A program made the position numbers. 64,000 nt of DNA from Candidatus Latescibacterota bacterium (GTDB lineage Bacteria > Latescibacterota > CBDEFO01), in NCBI GenBank assembly GCA_965248755.1, contig OZ252149.1, positions 4,288,001 to 4,352,000 of the forward strand, written 5' to 3'. Each line of letters begins with the position of its first letter. The first letter of the stretch is position 1. Positions 30,001 to 36,000 of this stretch are shown in pieces.

Positions 30001-33000
30001 AAGCGTTCGACAATTTCCATCAGCCTCTTTACGTTTTCTACTCTCTCTTTATCATCGTCTGGCATTTTAGTTTCACCGAAGGCGGTAGCTATAATCTGGC
30101 AGTTTTTCTCCTTTGCTAATTCTACCATGTCGGGACGTTCCAGAGATGCGGAGTTGAGGATAGGCTCTCCTTTGGAGTAATCATAGATCTCAAGACCTGA
30201 TTTGATATTGTCCGTTGCGGAGGAATCTATGCTCAGGGGCAAATCTACGTGTTGTTGGATTGTCGGTACTATCCACTCCATAGCCTGAGTCTGGACCTGG
30301 GGATTCGGTGCTATCTCATCTACATTTACGTCCAAGTAGTGTGCACCAGCCTCTACTTGTCTTCTGGCTGCGTAAAGGATATACTCCCGGGCTTCCTCCT
30401 GACCGTCTTTCTTTACTGATATTCCCTTGTCAACGGCGATCCTAATGTGCTTTATCTCATTTCGTTGATACTCCTGCGTTTCCTTGTAACTTTCAGGGAT
30501 TGTCAAGTATCTGATATTCCCTCCAGAATCGGTGAACTTGATAGCGTCAGTGCCGTCTTCCAGCGCTTTGACTCTCCTGCCATCCCTTCTGTAAACTCTG
30601 GTTGTATGTATGTTTTCGCCTATTATGATCAGATCACACGGCACTTTTGGATCTCCTGTGTTAACCCGGAATTGGCACGTCAATTGGGCAAGAGAGAGGG
30701 CTTATCTTAAATATTAAACATGAACTAAAACTTCGGGAACGTCAAAATATAGGTGTTACAATTTTATGCCCTTTCCCTCTACTTAGTTCTGTATAAAGCT
30801 CACGAATTTTGTAAAGTCGTCTAAGTTGTTGTGCAGGAATCTGTACACATCCTTTATGTCAATCTCAGCGTATTCGTTCACCAATTTATTTCTGAACCCC
30901 CCGATGCCCGGAATAGCTCCTGCGAAATCTTGAGGGAGCACCCCAATTCGGCGCAATTTCTCTGTAACCTTGCTGTATTCTTCGCATCTGATAAGGGCCT
31001 CTGCTGAAAGGATGTGGCTTCCGATCTCTAGAACGTAGTGGATAGCTATCTGAAGACCATGCTCCCTTGCCCAGAGGATCTCTCAATTTCCTGCTGCATC
31101 CGCAAGACCATATCGCTTCAGCCCCTTGAGGGTCCTGACTGTGCTATCAATATTCCTATATTAGCCTTCAGCGTGTTAACATCATATATGATTTTGCACT
31201 TTGGCAAAGCGACCTCTCTCTATCCGTTTGTTGAGATAGTAGCTTTGTAGACCTTATAAGTCGTCCCCTGAACTGGATGATGTCGTCAAGTTTGAAAGCT
31301 TAGTAATAGTTCTGAAGATCGCTTGTAGTTATGCTGGTGACTTTAGACATATTGCTCTCCTTTGCATTGGCCTACAAAGACTTCAGTGATCTTTATAACC
31401 TTCATAGAGTTCTTGAAGAGATGTGGGAAAATAGCGTCCTTGCAATCAACGAGCAGTTGAATTTATTTGAATTGAATCTAGATGGAACTCGTACCATCCG
31501 TTTCCATGGAGCCCACTGAAGGTGGATTATCAGGAACGGGTGGCGACAAACTTGGAGTCTGGAGCAGTGATGCGGGCTAAAGTCTTAGCCAGGGGATAGG
31601 ACTGTTCTACCTTTGCCGCTCCAACTCCCACGGGGATAAAATTGCCCCCTTGAGCGTCCCAGATGGCCTTGTTGAGACTGTAGCTTCGATCTCGGGCGTC
31701 ATCGTACACGGGATCGGCAAAGACGTCATAAAGACCCTGAATTTCGCCTTTAGCGCCCAGTTTAATGATCACCGACACAGCTACACCACGACTATTGACG
31801 GTCGCTATGGCATCCTCAAGTGCAAGCGGCGTGGGGAACATATTGTGCGACCCGCGTCCATCCCCCTGAGTCATATAAAATCCGTCTCTCATAAATAAGT
31901 TGAGTGCGTTGGCCAGCGGCTCTACCGCCAGGAGCACAGGATCGTCTTTGCCGCGATATTCTCCGCCTGTGATTACGGCTAACTTCTCTGTGGACGCAGA
32001 AAGGAGAATATCGCCCAGGCTCTCAAGAGCAAGCTCCGGATCCCACTCCTCTGTGGTTCTCGTCCAGATGCGCTTAAAGTTAAACTTCTCGGTGGCCCCC
32101 AGGAGGTTTTGTGCCTGGTGCGTCTCGCTTTCGAAATCCAGAAAGATGCGCTTGTGTCCTTCGACATCCCAGACCTCGACGACTAATCCCTTTGCGTCCG
32201 TCCCCTCCAAGTAATGGTTCAGGCTACCGTCTGCTGTGGTCTTGTTTAGGCTGTACCAGACTGGGAGATTGAAAGCCGAAGGGCCAGATTTATCTATAGC
32301 CAAAAGTCCTACATTAGCAGCTTTGGGCATCGGAAGCTCGGCAAAGCCCGGCCCCTGGCCAGATACGTTCCCTGCAAAGACGGGCTCAGGCTTGTGCCCC
32401 GTTACTCGTCCTGTCTTCCATTGATTATATGCAGATTTAAGTTTATCTATATATATACGTTCGGATTCGGGCAGAAAATCGGGCAGAAGTTCTATGAACG
32501 CATCGTCTATTTCTGCTAATTCTTCAGTTGTTCGCCCCTCTGTCGCGTCTCCCACCAGGTCCTGTCCCAAGCCGTACCACTTATACCCGATAATTTCAGC
32601 CACCCACACCTGACGGAAAAAGGTCTTGTATGCAAAAAGATGAATCGGATTACAGTCAACGCCTTTATCGTGGCTCATCAAAAGGTGTCCGTCGTCTCCC
32701 ACTTCTAATATCTTCGACGTTCCATATATTAGGCCTATATTTTTGGCCTCCTGGAGGCTCGCCTGTGCTACGTAGCGGAAGTGATTTGGCGGCGTGGTAT
32801 GACCTATCTTTCCACCGCTGTCCGCCTTGATATCTGAGATAGTGAAGATGGACCGCGCGTTTGCTCTGACGACCACTCGATCTTCATGGTCAGGAATATC
32901 CATGAAGCGGTGCGACAGACGTTCGGCCTCTCCAAAGGCGCGCCCTTCGGCGGTCTCGGGATTAAGGTAAGGCTCAAATTCCCCGTGCATCGTCATATAA

Positions 33001-36000
33001 CGGATCAGGTTCCCTGCGTCTTTTTGGAGCCTTCGGGTCTCCGGCCTGTTCTGGGAGAAGATGTCCTCAACGTCTGGCCCCTGGGGGATGCGGCCGTCGT
33101 CGTAGGATTGATACGCGTACGCTACGACCTTTACGGTTCCTTCACTTATGGCTGTACTCTTTGCCTCTTCAAAGCTTACAGGCATAAGCCCCACTCGATA
33201 TCCGCCGTCTTTGCCCCCTGGTCCGAAGTAGAACTCTGCAGTGGACTGTGTGTACTCCCCTATCGCGGGTAGTCCCGATTGAGAGCGGCCGATTAAAATG
33301 GGTGCGAAATCTCCTTCTACCATAGCGGCTGGTTCGTCTTTAAGATCTCCTTCTCCAAAGCGTACCCCAACTGCGTATACCTTGCTCAATCTCCATTCAT
33401 CGGCATCGGCAACAAGCGATTGCAGTTCATTCATCTGGCCCGGTCCAAATTCGTAGGTTCGCACTTGAGATTTAGCGGACCTGAGGTCTTGGATGCTCTC
33501 TACGAGGGCGGAAAAATAGTTTCCCTCGATGCGTCTTCCCGATCCTTTATCCGGGTTGAAAAATAGATTGAAGAGGGCGCGGTTGAAAAACCCCCAGCTT
33601 CCGTTTATGGCCTTTGCCACATAGATCGGTTCTGCGCCTCGCTCGGTGAAGGGGAAGTCCAGGTATCTTATGCCAAGGGCTTGAATCTGATCCTCAGGGT
33701 CCATGTCTATTATGCTCTTACCGTGGTCGGGCTGATAAAGTCCCATTTCATGAGCCTTTTTCAGAGCCTCTGTTGCCGCTATGCGCGCCAGCTCAGCGGC
33801 ACAAGTAGAAGGATTATCGCGGTAAGAGTTTCCGTCGAAGAAGTCCCCGTTATAAGTCGTAATATGCAGATGGAGATCCCCTCCAAAAATGTTGGTCCAC
33901 GCCCCTTTGAGCGTCCCGTTATCCACTTTGTCCCGCAAAAATTGCTCGGCTACCTGGAAGACTTCAACAGGTATATCACCGCCAAGAAGACTGCCCAGAT
34001 CTATGCTGGCAATAATGACATTTGACTGAGTCGAAGTACGGTTTTCCATTCCTTTCAATCCCATGGTTTTTTCTCTCCCTAATCAAGATAATTTGACCAC
34101 ATTCCGACAGGTAATTCTACCTCAATATCGCTCTAGTGTTTGCTCCTTTTCCCAGGATCAGATAAACAAAAACCTGACGTGATAATATAAGACAATTCCA
34201 GTAAAAGGCAAGCAGTTTCTGCTTGGTGCAGGCATATTTAATTCTTTCAAAAGCGCCAGTTGAGTCGGAGCCAAGCGAGGTTTTGAGATCAAGTGTGAGA
34301 ACTGAATGATCCTATTTATTGATCTAAATACACTATTTCGATGTGGCGGCTGCGTTACCCAGCCCTTGGGCGAGGGAATCTGGCACCTACACTATGTTCA
34401 ATCAGTACTCGCTTACCACTGGAAAGAAAATTAAACGATCCTGGCCTGCTGTCCACGTTTCTATCTTTACGATGAGGCGGTCTCAGAAGACCAGGAGGCG
34501 GTCTCAGAAGACCAGCTTGGAACCACATCTTCGCCCTCAATCCAGCCTTCTCCTTTTTCCCACACCTCCTTTTTCCATATCGGAACAATCTCTTTCAAGC
34601 GATCTATCGCATATTCACAAGCTTGGAAGGCCTCCCTCCTGTGAGGTGATGCCACAGCGATAGCCACACTAGCCTCTCCTATTTCTAATCTTCCTATGCG
34701 ATGAACGATAGCCAAATCTTTTATTCCCCACTTCTCTTTAATTTCATCCGCTATCTGTTTCATCTTCGTTTCGGCCATCTCTTCGTAAGCCTGATAGTCT
34801 AAGTACCTTACACCCTTTCCAAGAGAATTGTTCCGCACCACGCCTGCAAAGGTAACAACAGCCCCGTCTTCATCTTTCCTAACCATCTTTGCAAGCGCTT
34901 CCACATCTATTTCATCTTTGACTATTTTAAACATAATCAACCTCCAACGCAGAAGATATGACAGAGATCACATTTTTACAATTAACCGCCGCTTACCGGA
35001 GGTATAAAGGCTACCTCATCCTTGTCATTTAGCTGTGCTTCAAAGTCGGTGTACTCCTTATTCAGAGCCACAAAGAGATTCCCCTTGAGGTCCGATAGTT
35101 TTGGAAATCGATAGGCGATGTGGTGCCAGAGGTCGCCTACGGTTCCTTTTTCATCTAACTCTATTTCTATCTCATCTGCGCCTACAATATCCCTGCATGA
35201 TGCGAAAAATTTTACGTTGATCTTCAATTTGTCGCCCTTTGTACTGTCACTGATTTGTCCTTTTTCTCCCGATTTTCTCCCAAAAGGTTCTTCGATACGC
35301 CCCTTTCCGCCAACCCTCATAGCCCACGACGAAAAATATGATCGTGGCCTGAATGACATAGACCATTACCGACGAGACTCCGGCTGCTCTTTGCATGTTC
35401 CCGGCGCCTGCGTTCATAGCTCCGAACAGAAAGGAAGAGAAGATCACGCCTATGGGGTTTAATCTCCCCAAAAGGGCGACAGCAATAGCGGTATATCCGT
35501 AGCCGGGTGAGAACTTTTCGTAGAGGCGATACGTCAATCCAACTAGCTCAACAGCACCTGCTATCCCCGCAAGACCGCCGCTTATCAGCATCGCCAGTAG
35601 GATGTTTTTTTCAACCTTTATCCCTGCGTACCTGGCAGCCTGAGGGTTTAATCCCACGGACCGAATTCTGTAGCCCAAGACTGTCTTGTAGAGCAGAAAA
35701 TAGGCAAAACACGCCAAGACTAAAGCTAAAATCACGCCTGCGTGGAGACGCGTCGGAGGCGCTATTCTTGAGAGTCTTGCTGCCTCATATACAGCGTCGC
35801 TTTGGGGGAATTTGCCCGCCTTTTCCATAAGGGGGCCGTGCACGGCCCAGCTCACTATCTGGATAGCTACAAAATTGAGCATTATGGTGCTGATTACTTC
35901 CTGAACGCCCCTTTTTATCTTCAGTATTGCCGCTATGCCTGCCCATAGACCTCCAGAGATGAACGATACCAAAAGGATCAGGGGAAGGAGGATAAATCCA

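Follow-up and report, generated by a model that had tools for sequence, protein, structure and literature searches.

The 64,000-nucleotide window of the Candidatus Latescibacterota genome analysed here encodes an 844-aa protein composed of two class V fructose-1,6-bisphosphate (FBP) aldolase/phosphatase units. This protein is probably a permanently fused pseudo-heterodimer, in which a catalytic C-half has a catalytically dead N-half as its partner, and in which a patch of the N-half, together with the arm carrying Tyr823, completes the active site of a neighbouring chain. Catalysis would be confined to the C-half (residues 406-844), where one pocket would convert DHAP and GAP to FBP and then hydrolyse the FBP to F6P, while the N-half (residues 1-405) would serve as an obligatory structural partner. 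Four chains would rebuild an octamer of the archaeal type, in which half of the eight sites would be live and half dead.

Two units in one chain, one probably live and one degenerate

The gene starts with an ATG codon and its frame is unbroken through all 844 codons (Table 1). The protein matches the Pfam profile FBPase_3 (PF01950) in three stretches (E 1.7e-74, 251.6 bits). When the whole genome was scanned, the N-half region by itself reached 79.3 bits (profile positions 9-340 of 361) and the C-half 67.3 and 107.7 bits, and an HMM from 15 single-length enzymes gave 90.3 bits for the N-half (positions 11-347) and 181.9 bits for the C-half. The score against NF041126, the NCBIfam equivalog model for the canonical enzyme, was 235.7 bits and thus below the cut-off of 520. 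The PDB alignments of the preliminary description were recovered with phmmer: residues 408-507 align to 4-101 of 3T2B, 562-712 to 101-238 (YRGKDDPVLL on YVGKDDPVLL), and 251-373 to 231-357 (GDFAPILIGRSQSGLPAIGE on GKDDPVLLVRAQSGLPAVGE).

Table 1. Features of the double-length gene and its product (positions in the window; residues of the 844-aa protein).
Feature	Position	Strand	Basis
Whole gene, double-length FBP aldolase/phosphatase, stop codon included	31530..34064	minus	844 aa
N-half, residues 1-405: complete FBPase_3 fold, degenerate catalytic pocket	32850..34064	minus	fold comparison and HMM
N-half patch part 1, E141-R142-G-A-E145	33630..33644	minus	alignments
N-half vestigial Schiff-base loop V249-E-G-D-F-A-P255, without Tyr, Lys or Asp-Asp	33300..33320	minus	alignments
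N-half patch part 2, R260-S-Q262-S-G-L-P-A-I-G-E270 (3T2B R240..E250)	33255..33287	minus	alignments
N-half C-terminal arm and linker, residues 362-405, predicted on the C-half	32850..32981	minus	predicted interface list
C-half, residues 406-844: catalytic unit	31530..32849	minus	fold comparison and HMM
C-half D415..H422 (3T2B D11, H18)	32799..32822	minus	phmmer/PDB alignment and homologue alignments
C-half D457-D458 (3T2B D52, D53)	32691..32696	minus	alignments
C-half Y497-G-L-G-Q501-D502 (3T2B Y91, Q95, D96)	32559..32576	minus	alignments
C-half helical insertion in lid-loop region, 54 residues (508-561)	32382..32543	minus	alignments and model
C-half lid-loop motif VFAGNVSGQGPGFAE (562-576), low pLDDT	32337..32381	minus	alignments and model
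C-half D591-K592 (3T2B D132, K133)	32289..32294	minus	present in 62/62 diverse rows
C-half Schiff-base loop E702-Y703-R-G-K706-D707-D708-P709	31938..31961	minus	alignments
C-half R737-G-S-H740 (3T2B R266..H269); D-G-G-Y in the N-half	31845..31856	minus	alignments
C-half C-terminal loop E820-Q-S-Y823 (conserved E-x-x-Y of single-length enzymes)	31596..31607	minus	alignments

Both halves were compared with all seven solved FBP aldolase/phosphatase entries. Modelled alone with AF2, the N-half had a pLDDT of 91.7, and 330-352 of its residues were aligned by VIA-align to 1umg, 3r1m and 3t2b-g (Z 33.6-34.6, rmsd 2.8-4.3 A). For the C-half (model range 403-844), 343-355 residues were aligned (Z 34.8-37.2, rmsd 2.7-2.9 A), and the next unrelated fold matched the halves with Z 8-9. 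This comparison bears out the proposed head-to-tail fusion of two FBPase_3 units, each of which has the complete fold. Confidence in the AF2 model of the whole chain (pLDDT 90.9, pTM 0.89) is low essentially only for the lid (about 561-570), the Schiff-base loop (about 691-710), residues 731-740 and the N-terminal end. Three mobile loops are known in the class V enzyme (PMC4473056), and the low-confidence loops of the double-length protein coincide with them. The low pLDDT of the lid-loop motif is what a mobile loop should show.

All catalytic positions checked are kept in the C-half, including Lys706, Tyr703, the acidic and His ligands, the lid motif and Tyr823. All 121 close homologues have D415, H422, D457, D458, Y497, Q501, D591, K592, Y703, K706, D707 and D708, while R737, H740, E820 and Y823 are each found in 120 of them. 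In the diverse alignment of 62 rows, D591, K592, Y703, K706, D707 and D708 are found in 61 of 61 C-halves, the remaining row being a gap at K706, D707 and D708, and Y823 is found in 60 rows. The lid-region insert is characteristic of the double-length family and has no counterpart in single-length enzymes: it measures 53-58 residues in 54 of the 62 rows, is longer in five and has 0-6 residues in three.

In the N-half nearly all catalytic positions have been lost, including the lid motif, and the equivalent positions are occupied by G29, G62, K116, I153, N154, V249, D252, F253 and A254. Of eight positions which we take to be metal ligands, only D22 and D63 are kept in this protein; this check had been left aside in the preliminary description. 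The same split between an apparently live C-half and an apparently dead N-half holds in every double-length protein examined, as had been claimed. The accompanying statement that no Lys occurs at positions 252-254 is true for most homologues but not for all, since 10 of the 121 have K253, never as K-D-D. To judge from its conservation, the N-half is under strong purifying selection and not mere dead weight: 92 of its 393 positions are invariant among the 121 homologues.

Residues kept by the N-half and the predicted interface

E141, R142 and E145, together with R260, Q262 and E270, form a small polar surface patch that is conserved in single-length enzymes, kept by the N-half alone and lost from the C-half; R142, R260, Q262 and E270 are conserved residues outside the pocket. 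R142 is present in all 121 close homologues and in 57 of the 62 diverse ones (the other five are gaps). In the C-half of the 844-aa protein the equivalent of R142 is deleted or changed (P580), and V714 and a five-residue deletion replace the second part of the patch. Of the 55 N-halves in which the R240-equivalent position is occupied, 53 have Arg, against none of 61 C-halves; the Q242-equivalent is Gln in 55 of 55 N-halves and mostly deleted from C-halves; and the R121-equivalent is Arg in 55 of 56 N-halves. Among the 15 single-length enzymes, Arg is found at the two Arg positions in 15/15 and 14/15, and Gln at the Q242 position in 12/15.

A complex prediction for residues 1-405 against 406-844 scored 0.68, the best of three controls reaching 0.01. 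Among solved complexes, 116 of 157 attain the score mark of this prediction, as do 2 of 215 mismatched pairs, and the passing score may alternatively stem from likeness to solved homo-oligomers. The runs agreed in at least 93% of the contacts, with partner pLDDT values of at least 86. Since 38 of the 44 interface profile columns of the N-half lie within two columns of a C-half interface column, the predicted interface is pseudo-twofold. The C-terminal arms of both halves lie within it, and the prediction has the halves swap arms in a pseudo-twofold dimer, a geometry that would place Tyr823 on the N-half belonging to the same chain.

By strand topology, the patch sits at the pole opposite the N-half's own pocket. 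Residues 142 and 260-270 fall outside the predicted intrachain interface, and the model thus lends no support to completion of the C-half pocket by the patch within one chain. This position suggests that the patch acts on an adjacent chain, whose live site it would complete together with the Tyr823 arm resting on the N-half. This role between chains is argued on logical grounds, with an assumption as to which subunit of the archaeal octamer contributes R240, Q242 and the C-terminal Tyr.

Family, origin and metabolic context

Among 8000 scored candidates of 464-1477 aa, 208 homologous proteins were found at E<=1e-3, compared with the 241 reported previously; the 120 listed are of 714-875 aa. 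The double-length form was found at 76 loci from independent assemblies. It is not restricted to Acidobacteriota and Nitrospinota; the MAG labels span about 11 phyla. FBPase_3 occurs in four, and not two, of the 167 other genomes of the phylum: a genome of the same genus carries the double form, another has a form of normal size (380 aa), and two contain scraps. In Omnitrophota and Planctomycetota, the module is fused to TIM, GAPDH, transaldolase, PGI and PGM in giant multi-enzyme proteins, and a sugar nucleotidyltransferase was also found in the same chain as the double-length module. In a tree, a single branch (SH-aLRT 95) separates the 22 N-halves from the remaining sequences, a C-half clade holds 19 of 21 C-halves (SH-aLRT 96), and the sub-clades of the two mirror each other, which suggests a single origin of the double form. 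No clear stand-alone N-like gene was detected among 37 proteins of 222-709 aa, the neighbourhoods of the double-form genes are not conserved, and a literature search returned no description of this form.

The view that this gene is the only one for an FBPase or FBP aldolase in its genome (one contig, 98% complete) holds for intact genes, but two pseudogene remnants of a class I aldolase of the PRK09250/FbaB type are also present. The genome lacks FBPases of classes I, II and III as well as class II aldolase and PFK; a profile scan gave no matches to PF00316, PF03320, PF06874, PF01116 and PF00365. PF01116, PF00316 and PF03320 (class II aldolase, class I and GlpX FBPases) are likewise absent from all five other single-chromosome genomes with the double form (submitter labels Poribacteria, Gemmataceae, two Acidobacteriota and Elusimicrobia). 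If it has the activity that its residues suggest, the 844-aa protein would be the one intact enzyme with which this bacterium can make six-carbon sugar phosphates.

Alternative readings and known systems

One chain might suffice if the N-half arm gave the substitute Y366 (motif FEPY) and other residues to the C-half pocket; a monomeric pseudo-dimer could then work, and R142, R260 and Q262 would be structural or serve oligomer contacts only. Indeed, arm residues 362-369 and 372-380 and the pocket-flanking C-half residues 468-470, 599-600 and 741 belong to the predicted interface, and Y366 is Tyr in 114 of 121 close and 45 of 62 diverse homologues. However, Y823, the true counterpart of the conserved C-terminal Tyr, is better kept (60 of 62), its conservation is hard to explain if it merely rests on a dead half, and the survival solely in that half of patch residues conserved in single-length enzymes goes unexplained. 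We therefore regard a self-sufficient chain as unlikely. Rather less probable still is a regulatory N-half, whose remodelled pocket or patch would bind an effector as in hexokinase I and phosphofructokinase. This pocket is not random (of 121 homologues, 120 have D63, 119 have Y289, 120 have V249 and 113 have Asp or Asn at position 254), and the N-half has invariant motifs of its own, such as ERGAEP..WGFFNRALFNLFFNPDKGSG. Nevertheless, the former pocket varies (N/D/Q/A at 22, P/G/S/L at 29, D/E/G/R/Q at 62, G/S/A/D at 252, R/V/F/K at 253), which is unusual for a ligand site, the lid motif is missing, and we know of no effector of class V enzymes.

The lid insert and the loss from the live half of the R240/Q242 loop, which is kept by all single-length enzymes, imply that its chemistry or specificity could differ. 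The protein might accordingly act on sedoheptulose-1,7-bisphosphate or another ketose bisphosphate and not be the cell's FBP enzyme, and both the sub-threshold NF041126 score and the fusion to transaldolase in some giant proteins would fit. We give this reading little credence, since all pocket residues shared with FBP enzymes are invariant, none of the six complete genomes checked carries a further intact gene for FBP aldolase or FBPase although hexose phosphates must be made, and the fusion partners TIM, GAPDH and PGI lie directly on either side of the FBP step. That an assembly or base-calling error joined two adjacent genes, or that the gene is a decaying duplicate, has a negligible probability. 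There are broken genes elsewhere in this long-read-type single-contig genome, but the continuous frame, the same architecture in the 120 listed homologues and the 76 loci, the purifying selection on the N-half and the lack of a clear stand-alone N-like gene among the 37 proteins refute such an artefact.

The fold of both halves is that of the canonical class V FBPases of Sulfurisphaera tokodaii (ST0318; 1UMG, 3R1M) and Thermoproteus neutrophilus (3T2B-3T2G), and the C-half has the Schiff-base Lys, Tyr229, the Asp/His/Gln pocket, the lid motif, RGSH and the C-terminal Tyr in common with them. Whereas the canonical enzyme is one unit of about 360-390 aa, two units are present here in one chain, the first without the pocket and the second without the R240/Q242 loop and, in this protein, also without the R121 equivalent; the double form adds the helical lid-region insert, and this protein scores below the cut-off of the canonical model. 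Its hosts are MAGs labelled, for example, Acidobacteriota, Poribacteria and Planctomycetota, in contrast to the archaea and thermophilic bacteria that reportedly represent the usual distribution (Say and Fuchs are said to have described this in 2010).

Mammalian hexokinase I, a 100-kDa protein, has duplicated halves with a catalytic C-half and a regulatory N-half, and eukaryotic phosphofructokinase was duplicated and fused, one half degenerating into an allosteric site. The double-length protein resembles both in the tandem duplication of a whole unit, with one half catalytic and the fold of the other constrained. Their folds and chemistry are unrelated to those of the double form, and their dead half became an allosteric site, whereas the dead half here keeps residues lost from the live half, which argues less for regulation than for a part in completing an active site or an oligomer.

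Two FBPase_3 units and their folds

PF01950 (FBPase_3) was the sole Pfam family on the whole double-length protein, with three stretches (E 1.7e-74, 251.6 bits, gathering cut-off 25 bits). A six-frame scan of the host genome, which is a single contig of 4.54 Mb and 98% complete, placed the family at the double-length locus only. The N-half (residues 1-405) scored 79.3 bits over profile positions 9-340 of 361, and the C-half (406-844) matched in two pieces of 67.3 and 107.7 bits, at positions 3-102 and 100-329. Neither the whole protein (235.7 bits) nor the N-half (75.5) or the C-half (165.7) reached the 520-bit equivalog cut-off of NCBIfam NF041126 (FBP_aldo_phos), and an HMM built from 15 single-length enzymes, i.e. 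normal one-unit class V FBP aldolase/phosphatases, gave 90.3 bits for the N-half (positions 11-347 of 369) and 181.9 bits for the C-half. BLASTP of one half against the other gave nothing significant (E 0.10), as the halves have diverged too far for it, and their kinship is therefore visible only through profiles and structure. The phmmer alignments to solved enzymes in the preliminary description were reproduced exactly as quoted.

The solved class V fold is a four-layer alpha-beta-beta-alpha sandwich. An AlphaFold2 model of the whole chain, made from an alignment of 62 diverse double-length proteins, had a pLDDT of 90.9 and a pTM of 0.89, and was poorly defined only at the first residues and around 561-570, 691-710 and 731-740. 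The weak stretches of the C-half correspond to its lid motif, Schiff-base loop and RGSH loop; PMC4473056 describes three loops that move in and out of the single pocket of the FBP aldolase/phosphatase. The real matches returned by Foldseek were seven FBP aldolase/phosphatase entries only, among them 3T2G, the Y229F variant. Aligned with these entries by VIA-align, residues 403-844 of the model gave Z-scores of 34.8-37.2 over 343-355 residues (rmsd 2.7-2.9 A). A separate model of residues 1-405 (pLDDT 91.7) gave Z-scores of 33.6-34.6 over 330-352 residues (rmsd 2.8-4.3 A, 23-26% identity), with the next structure match at Z 8.2. Both modelled halves thus belong to the 1UMG/3T2B family over their whole length, and the head-to-tail pair of units proposed in the preliminary description is borne out, each half being a complete fold by structure comparison.

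Catalytic residues and complementary loss

Both halves were read, with the numbering of the 3T2B chain, at those columns that vary little or not at all among the 15 single-length enzymes. For the C-half, family alignments were used to locate the lid motif and the C-terminal Tyr, because insertions cause the local HMM alignment to misplace them. Following the 2004 and 2011 structure papers, we take K232 to be the Schiff-base lysine and Y229, D233 and D234 to be catalytic, while D11, H18, D52, D53, Q95, D132 and K133 are presumably pocket and metal-binding residues. The C-terminal Tyr (position 358; Tyr348 in S. tokodaii) is assumed to have a role in the aldolase step.

The seven presumed pocket residues are invariant in all 15 single-length enzymes, and the C-half has each of them, as D415 (D11), H422 (H18), D457/D458 (D52/D53), Q501 (Q95) and D591/K592 (D132/K133), in 121 of 121 close homologues. 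The Schiff-base motif Y-x-G-K-D-D-P is likewise present in all 121 as Y703, K706, D707 and D708, and these four residues, together with D591 and K592, were found in 61 of 61 diverse C-halves. Y497 and D502 correspond to Y91 and D96, and R737..H740 to R266..H269; every catalytic residue listed for the C-half occurs in 120 or 121 of the 121 close homologues. The lid motif S-G-N-x-R-G-x-G-P-G-x-A-E lies at 562-576 (VFAGNVSGQGPGFAE), preceded by a 54-residue insert, and the C-terminal Tyr is present in E820..Y823 (E-x-x-Y; Tyr in 60 of 62 rows and in 15 of 15 single-length enzymes).

The N-half presents a different picture. Its residues at the catalytic columns are D22, G29, G62, D63, Y110, K116, S117, I153, N154, V249, D252, F253, A254 and D286..Y289, so that the Schiff-base motif is replaced by V249, D252, F253 and A254. 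It has no lid motif and no equivalent of the C-terminal Tyr, Y366 being at another position. Across the family 120 of 121 N-halves keep D63 and 113 of 121 have D or N at position 254, while 22, 29, 62, 252 and 253 drift. The division into a live C-half and a dead N-half made in the preliminary description therefore stands in both the close and the diverse alignment, almost all of the catalytic set being lost from the N-half. Its statement that no Lys occurs at 252-254 does not: 10 of 121 homologues have a Lys at 253, yet without the Asp-Asp or the Tyr. As for the metal ligands, which it had left to be checked, the N-half of this protein has two of the eight presumed ligand positions, D22 and D63.

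Judged by conservation, the N-half is not decaying, with 92 of 393 positions invariant in the 121 homologues (150 of 437 in the C-half). Indeed, a small set of conserved single-length columns survives in the N-half only. The R121 equivalent lies in an E-R-x-x-E motif as E141, R142 and E145, with Arg in 55 of 56 N-halves, whereas the C-half has P580 and has lost the motif (Arg in 24 of 61 C-halves). R240 is R260 in the N-half (53 of 55) but V714 in the C-half (0 of 61), and Q242 is Q262 in the N-half (55 of 55) but falls within a five-residue deletion in the C-half, as it mostly does in C-halves generally. P246 and E250, which are P266 and E270 in the N-half and mostly kept in N-halves, are lost from the C-half and from C-halves. 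The entire loop R240-x-Q242-x-x-(L/F)-P-A-x-x-E250, which has the Arg in 14, the Gln in 12, the Pro in 15 and the Glu in 14 of 15 single-length enzymes, is thus confined to the N-half. With this loop in one half and the other elements in the other, the chain as a whole has one copy of each element across two units.

Packing of the halves and a proposed oligomer

In a complex prediction of residues 1-405 against 406-844, each with its own alignment, the score was 0.68, a mark that 116 of 157 solved complexes attain, as do 2 of 215 mismatched pairs, and the best of three controls scored 0.01. The runs shared at least 93% of contacts and the partner pLDDT was at least 86. It should be noted that the family's homo-oligomers have been solved, so that the passing score may partly be a memory of a like complex. 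Of the 44 interface columns of the N-half profile, 38 had a C-half interface column no more than two columns away, and both C-terminal arms were in the predicted interface (N-half 362-405 on the C-half, C-half 808-843 on the N-half). As the same elements are used by both halves and both arms take part, the two halves of one chain are predicted to be an arm-swapped pseudo-twofold dimer.

The residues kept in the N-half only (E141/R142/E145 and R260/Q262/E270, hereafter the patch) can be placed in the fold. The secondary structure of the model has R142 ahead of the strand whose end is the D132/K133 position, and R260/Q262 at the end of the strand that follows directly on the Schiff-base loop. 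By this topology the patch would lie at the pole of the sheet away from the N-half's own pocket. We considered that it might touch the pocket of the C-half of its own chain, but dropped this since residues 142 and 256-270 and the pocket residues are missing from the predicted interface, in which residues not named count as uncertain rather than proven absent. Complementation within the chain was rejected for this reason. In single-length enzymes every subunit has both the C-terminal Tyr and the patch. The fused form has as many dead pockets as live ones, and one patch and one Tyr arm per pair have become dispensable; the patch that survives is that of the N-half, the Tyr arm that of the C-half. 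If each element was kept for the live pocket, the patch would act from an N-half onto a C-half, and its position outside the intrachain interface means that this C-half must belong to another chain. The Tyr arm would act from C-half to C-half, though resting on the N-half of its own chain.

The class V enzyme of the 1UMG type is a homo-octamer. One arrangement would accommodate all these constraints: the fused chains may build an octamer-like (N-C)4 particle with rings alternating N, C, N, C and with four live and four dead sites, in which the live pocket of one chain's C-half would be completed by the patch of a neighbouring N-half (R142/R260/Q262) and would also take the Tyr823 arm of the neighbour's C-half, draped over that neighbour's N-half. 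P0122, a homologous protein of 3495 aa with the order N-C-N-C, fits such an alternation. We consider it fairly likely that the C-half is the enzyme, with an activity that is predicted, and the N-half its obligatory non-catalytic partner. Completion of the live pocket in trans within the alternating octamer lies, in our estimate, somewhere between a tentative possibility and an even chance.

Distribution, gluconeogenic context and meaning

With one genome scanned for each of 185,579 species, the double-length form turned up in 91 stretches from 76 loci, every host being a MAG. The labels, which are the submitters' own and in a few cases look odd, are Latescibacterota (97% identical), Acidobacteriota/Aminicenantes, Poribacteria, Planctomycetota, Nitrospinota, Binatia, Thermodesulfobacteriota/Syntrophales, Myxococcales, Elusimicrobia, Omnitrophota and Chloroflexota. 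A quick IQ-TREE tree with SH-aLRT support was made from 23 chosen double-length proteins, of which the halves with at least 220 filled columns were kept (22 N-halves, 21 C-halves), and 15 single-length enzymes, with the lid columns dropped. All N-halves fell on one side of a branch (95) and 19 C-halves formed one clade (96), with two long-branched C-halves outside the resolved clade. The C-halves grouped with bacterial-type single-length enzymes (91), sub-clades were mirrored in both halves, and end branches were about twice as long in N-halves as in C-halves. This pattern fits a single ancient event of duplication and fusion, after which the halves co-diverged and the form spread laterally. 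Among 37 proteins of 222-709 aa that match the N-half no clear stand-alone N-like gene was seen; they comprise fragments from short contigs, matches over part of the length and longer truncated forms, and two are single-length enzymes at 26% identity.

No recurring neighbour was found among 27 neighbour ORFs and three fused genes from 12 loci, where the dikinase of L021 (Table) was the sole gluconeogenic neighbour. Near the double-length gene the window encodes MoaE, MoaD/ThiS, an ABC transporter and a pterin-binding protein. A repeat matching that of the MoaE ORF is read on the opposite strand, and the true start of the ThiS/MoaD ORF probably lies further downstream. The transcript contigs are only a hint of expression of the double-length gene, as RNA libraries can contain DNA.

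Features of the window and of related loci
Feature	Coordinates	Strand	Description
Double-length gene	31530..34064	-	844 codons open, ATG start
Transcript contigs	parts of 32148-32645		four contigs of 151-163 nt, 1-3 mismatches each; two marine metatranscriptome runs, two studies
Transposase and integrase ORFs	26630-28607	-	Mutator family (IS256-like) and rve; ~3-5 kb from the double-length gene
MoaE ORF	34467-34940	-	MoaE domain at residues 7-117 of 157; short tandem peptide repeat at end (…SWSSETASWSSETASS)
ThiS/MoaD-family ORF	34982-35359	-	match at residues 49-125 of 125; overlaps upstream permease ORF
Permease ORF	35247-36347
MFS transporter gene	39529-40752
DUF6785 protein gene	41011-42990	-	659 aa; DUF6785 (E 3.2e-133) and DUF6784; adjoins MFS transporter gene
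Class I aldolase remnant 1	G000:C1:182764-183336 (L083/L084)		host genome, outside window; profile positions 118-307, three frames with stops, first 117 positions missing
Class I aldolase remnant 2	G000:C1:1708762-1709435 (L085/L086)		host genome, outside window; at least six stops
Single-length enzyme	G008:C1:539421-540521		normal FBP aldolase/phosphatase of another genome of the phylum; 380-aa frame, 451 bits; class II aldolase in same genome
Locus L021	8566-11313	+	Acidobacteriota MAG; pyruvate phosphate dikinase directly downstream
Giant fusion locus L075	4681-10038		uninterrupted ORF of 1785 aa; TIM + double module (Pfam)
Giant fusion locus L081	1327-6579		uninterrupted ORF of 1750 aa
Giant fusion locus L062	4051-9228
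Giant fusion locus L069	4858-9258
Fusion protein P0134			TIM + GAPDH + double module (Pfam)
Fusion protein P0147			TIM + double module (Pfam)
Fusion protein P0129			sugar nucleotidyltransferase + transaldolase + PGM + double module (Pfam)
Fusion protein P0158			methyltransferase + double module + transaldolase + PGI + PGM (Pfam)
Fusion protein P0187			6-phosphogluconolactonase-type domain + double module (Pfam)

FBPases of class I, II (GlpX) and III, class II aldolase and PFK are all without a match in the host genome. The class I aldolase family Glycolytic (PF00274) gave none either, but this negative is uninformative since the control matched no genome. A DeoC-superfamily scan did reveal two remnants of a class I aldolase (FbaB/PRK09250-type), both scoring under the family cut-off. 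The double-length gene, which the preliminary description took to be the only FBPase or FBP aldolase gene of the genome, is thus the only intact one, and the remnants suggest replacement. Within the phylum (168 genomes) a class II aldolase occurs in 66 genomes and a class I FBPase in 63, and neither in the two members of the host genus, to which the double form is restricted. The single-length form in G008, as against the double form of the host genus, indicates that the two forms entered the phylum separately. Class II aldolase, class I FBPase and GlpX were each found in none of five other single-chromosome genomes with the double form (by record title one Poribacteria, one Gemmataceae, two Acidobacteriota and one Elusimicrobia), so that 6 of 6 complete genomes lack alternative intact FBP aldolase or FBPase genes.

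An exhaustive profile search uncovered many proteins of 900-6400 aa that hold the double module at 30-48% identity, including giant single-ORF proteins of 1400-6400 aa from Omnitrophota, Planctomycetota and Elusimicrobia MAGs. Several have large parts with no Pfam match, and wherever both signature motifs were found the N-type loop was ahead of the C-type K-D-D motif. P0122 has two full double modules in a row (N-type loop at 1565 and 2455, K-D-D at 1996 and 2891), with about 1400 residues ahead of them and 480 after them without a Pfam family. A eukaryotic origin of the giants, guessed from the TIM-GAPDH fusion, was rejected, as the titles of their contigs name Planctomycetales, Omnitrophota and Elusimicrobia MAGs and the ORFs at L081 and L075 are uninterrupted. 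The enzymes fused to the module flank the FBP step on both sides, in support of the function assigned to it, and fusions with TIM, GAPDH, PGI and PGM suggest substrate channelling around this step. Together with the genome gaps they form an indirect basis for a putative dual activity of the double form as FBP aldolase and FBPase.

In the source databases the double-length proteins are named only 'fructose 1,6-bisphosphatase' or 'aldolase/phosphatase'. With such vague names, a missed NF041126 cut-off and no aldolase in sight, metabolic models of MAGs such as those of Acidobacteriota, Poribacteria, Binatia and Planctomycetota can wrongly leave the aldolase step empty, or overlook gluconeogenesis through a one-way bifunctional enzyme. 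Searches of the open-licence literature did not turn up a double-length or fused FBP aldolase/phosphatase, a weak sign of novelty, as the slash in the enzyme name hampers searching. If the proposed arrangement is true, a homo-octamer would have given rise to a ring of fixed alternation in which half of the sites are inactive, and the double-length form, rather than the textbook pair of aldolase and FBPase, would be the gluconeogenic FBP step in bacteria under about eleven phylum labels. In the Omnitrophota and Planctomycetota fusions it would then be the core of 'gluconeogenesis assembly lines', single chains that reach several thousand residues and channel labile triose phosphates. The combined picture of an obligate (N-C)4 particle with three-unit live sites, a gluconeogenic FBP step under about eleven phylum labels and single-chain assembly lines is one that we hold tentatively, and would sooner doubt than expect.

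The family would offer a natural case of a homo-oligomer turned into a fixed pseudo-heteromer with complementary loss, which marks those conserved residues that work outside the pocket of their own subunit. The single-length enzyme has reportedly been proposed, in a paper on an 'ancestral gluconeogenic enzyme', to be ancestral in archaea and thermophiles; a derived fused form in many bacterial MAGs beyond these groups widens that picture.
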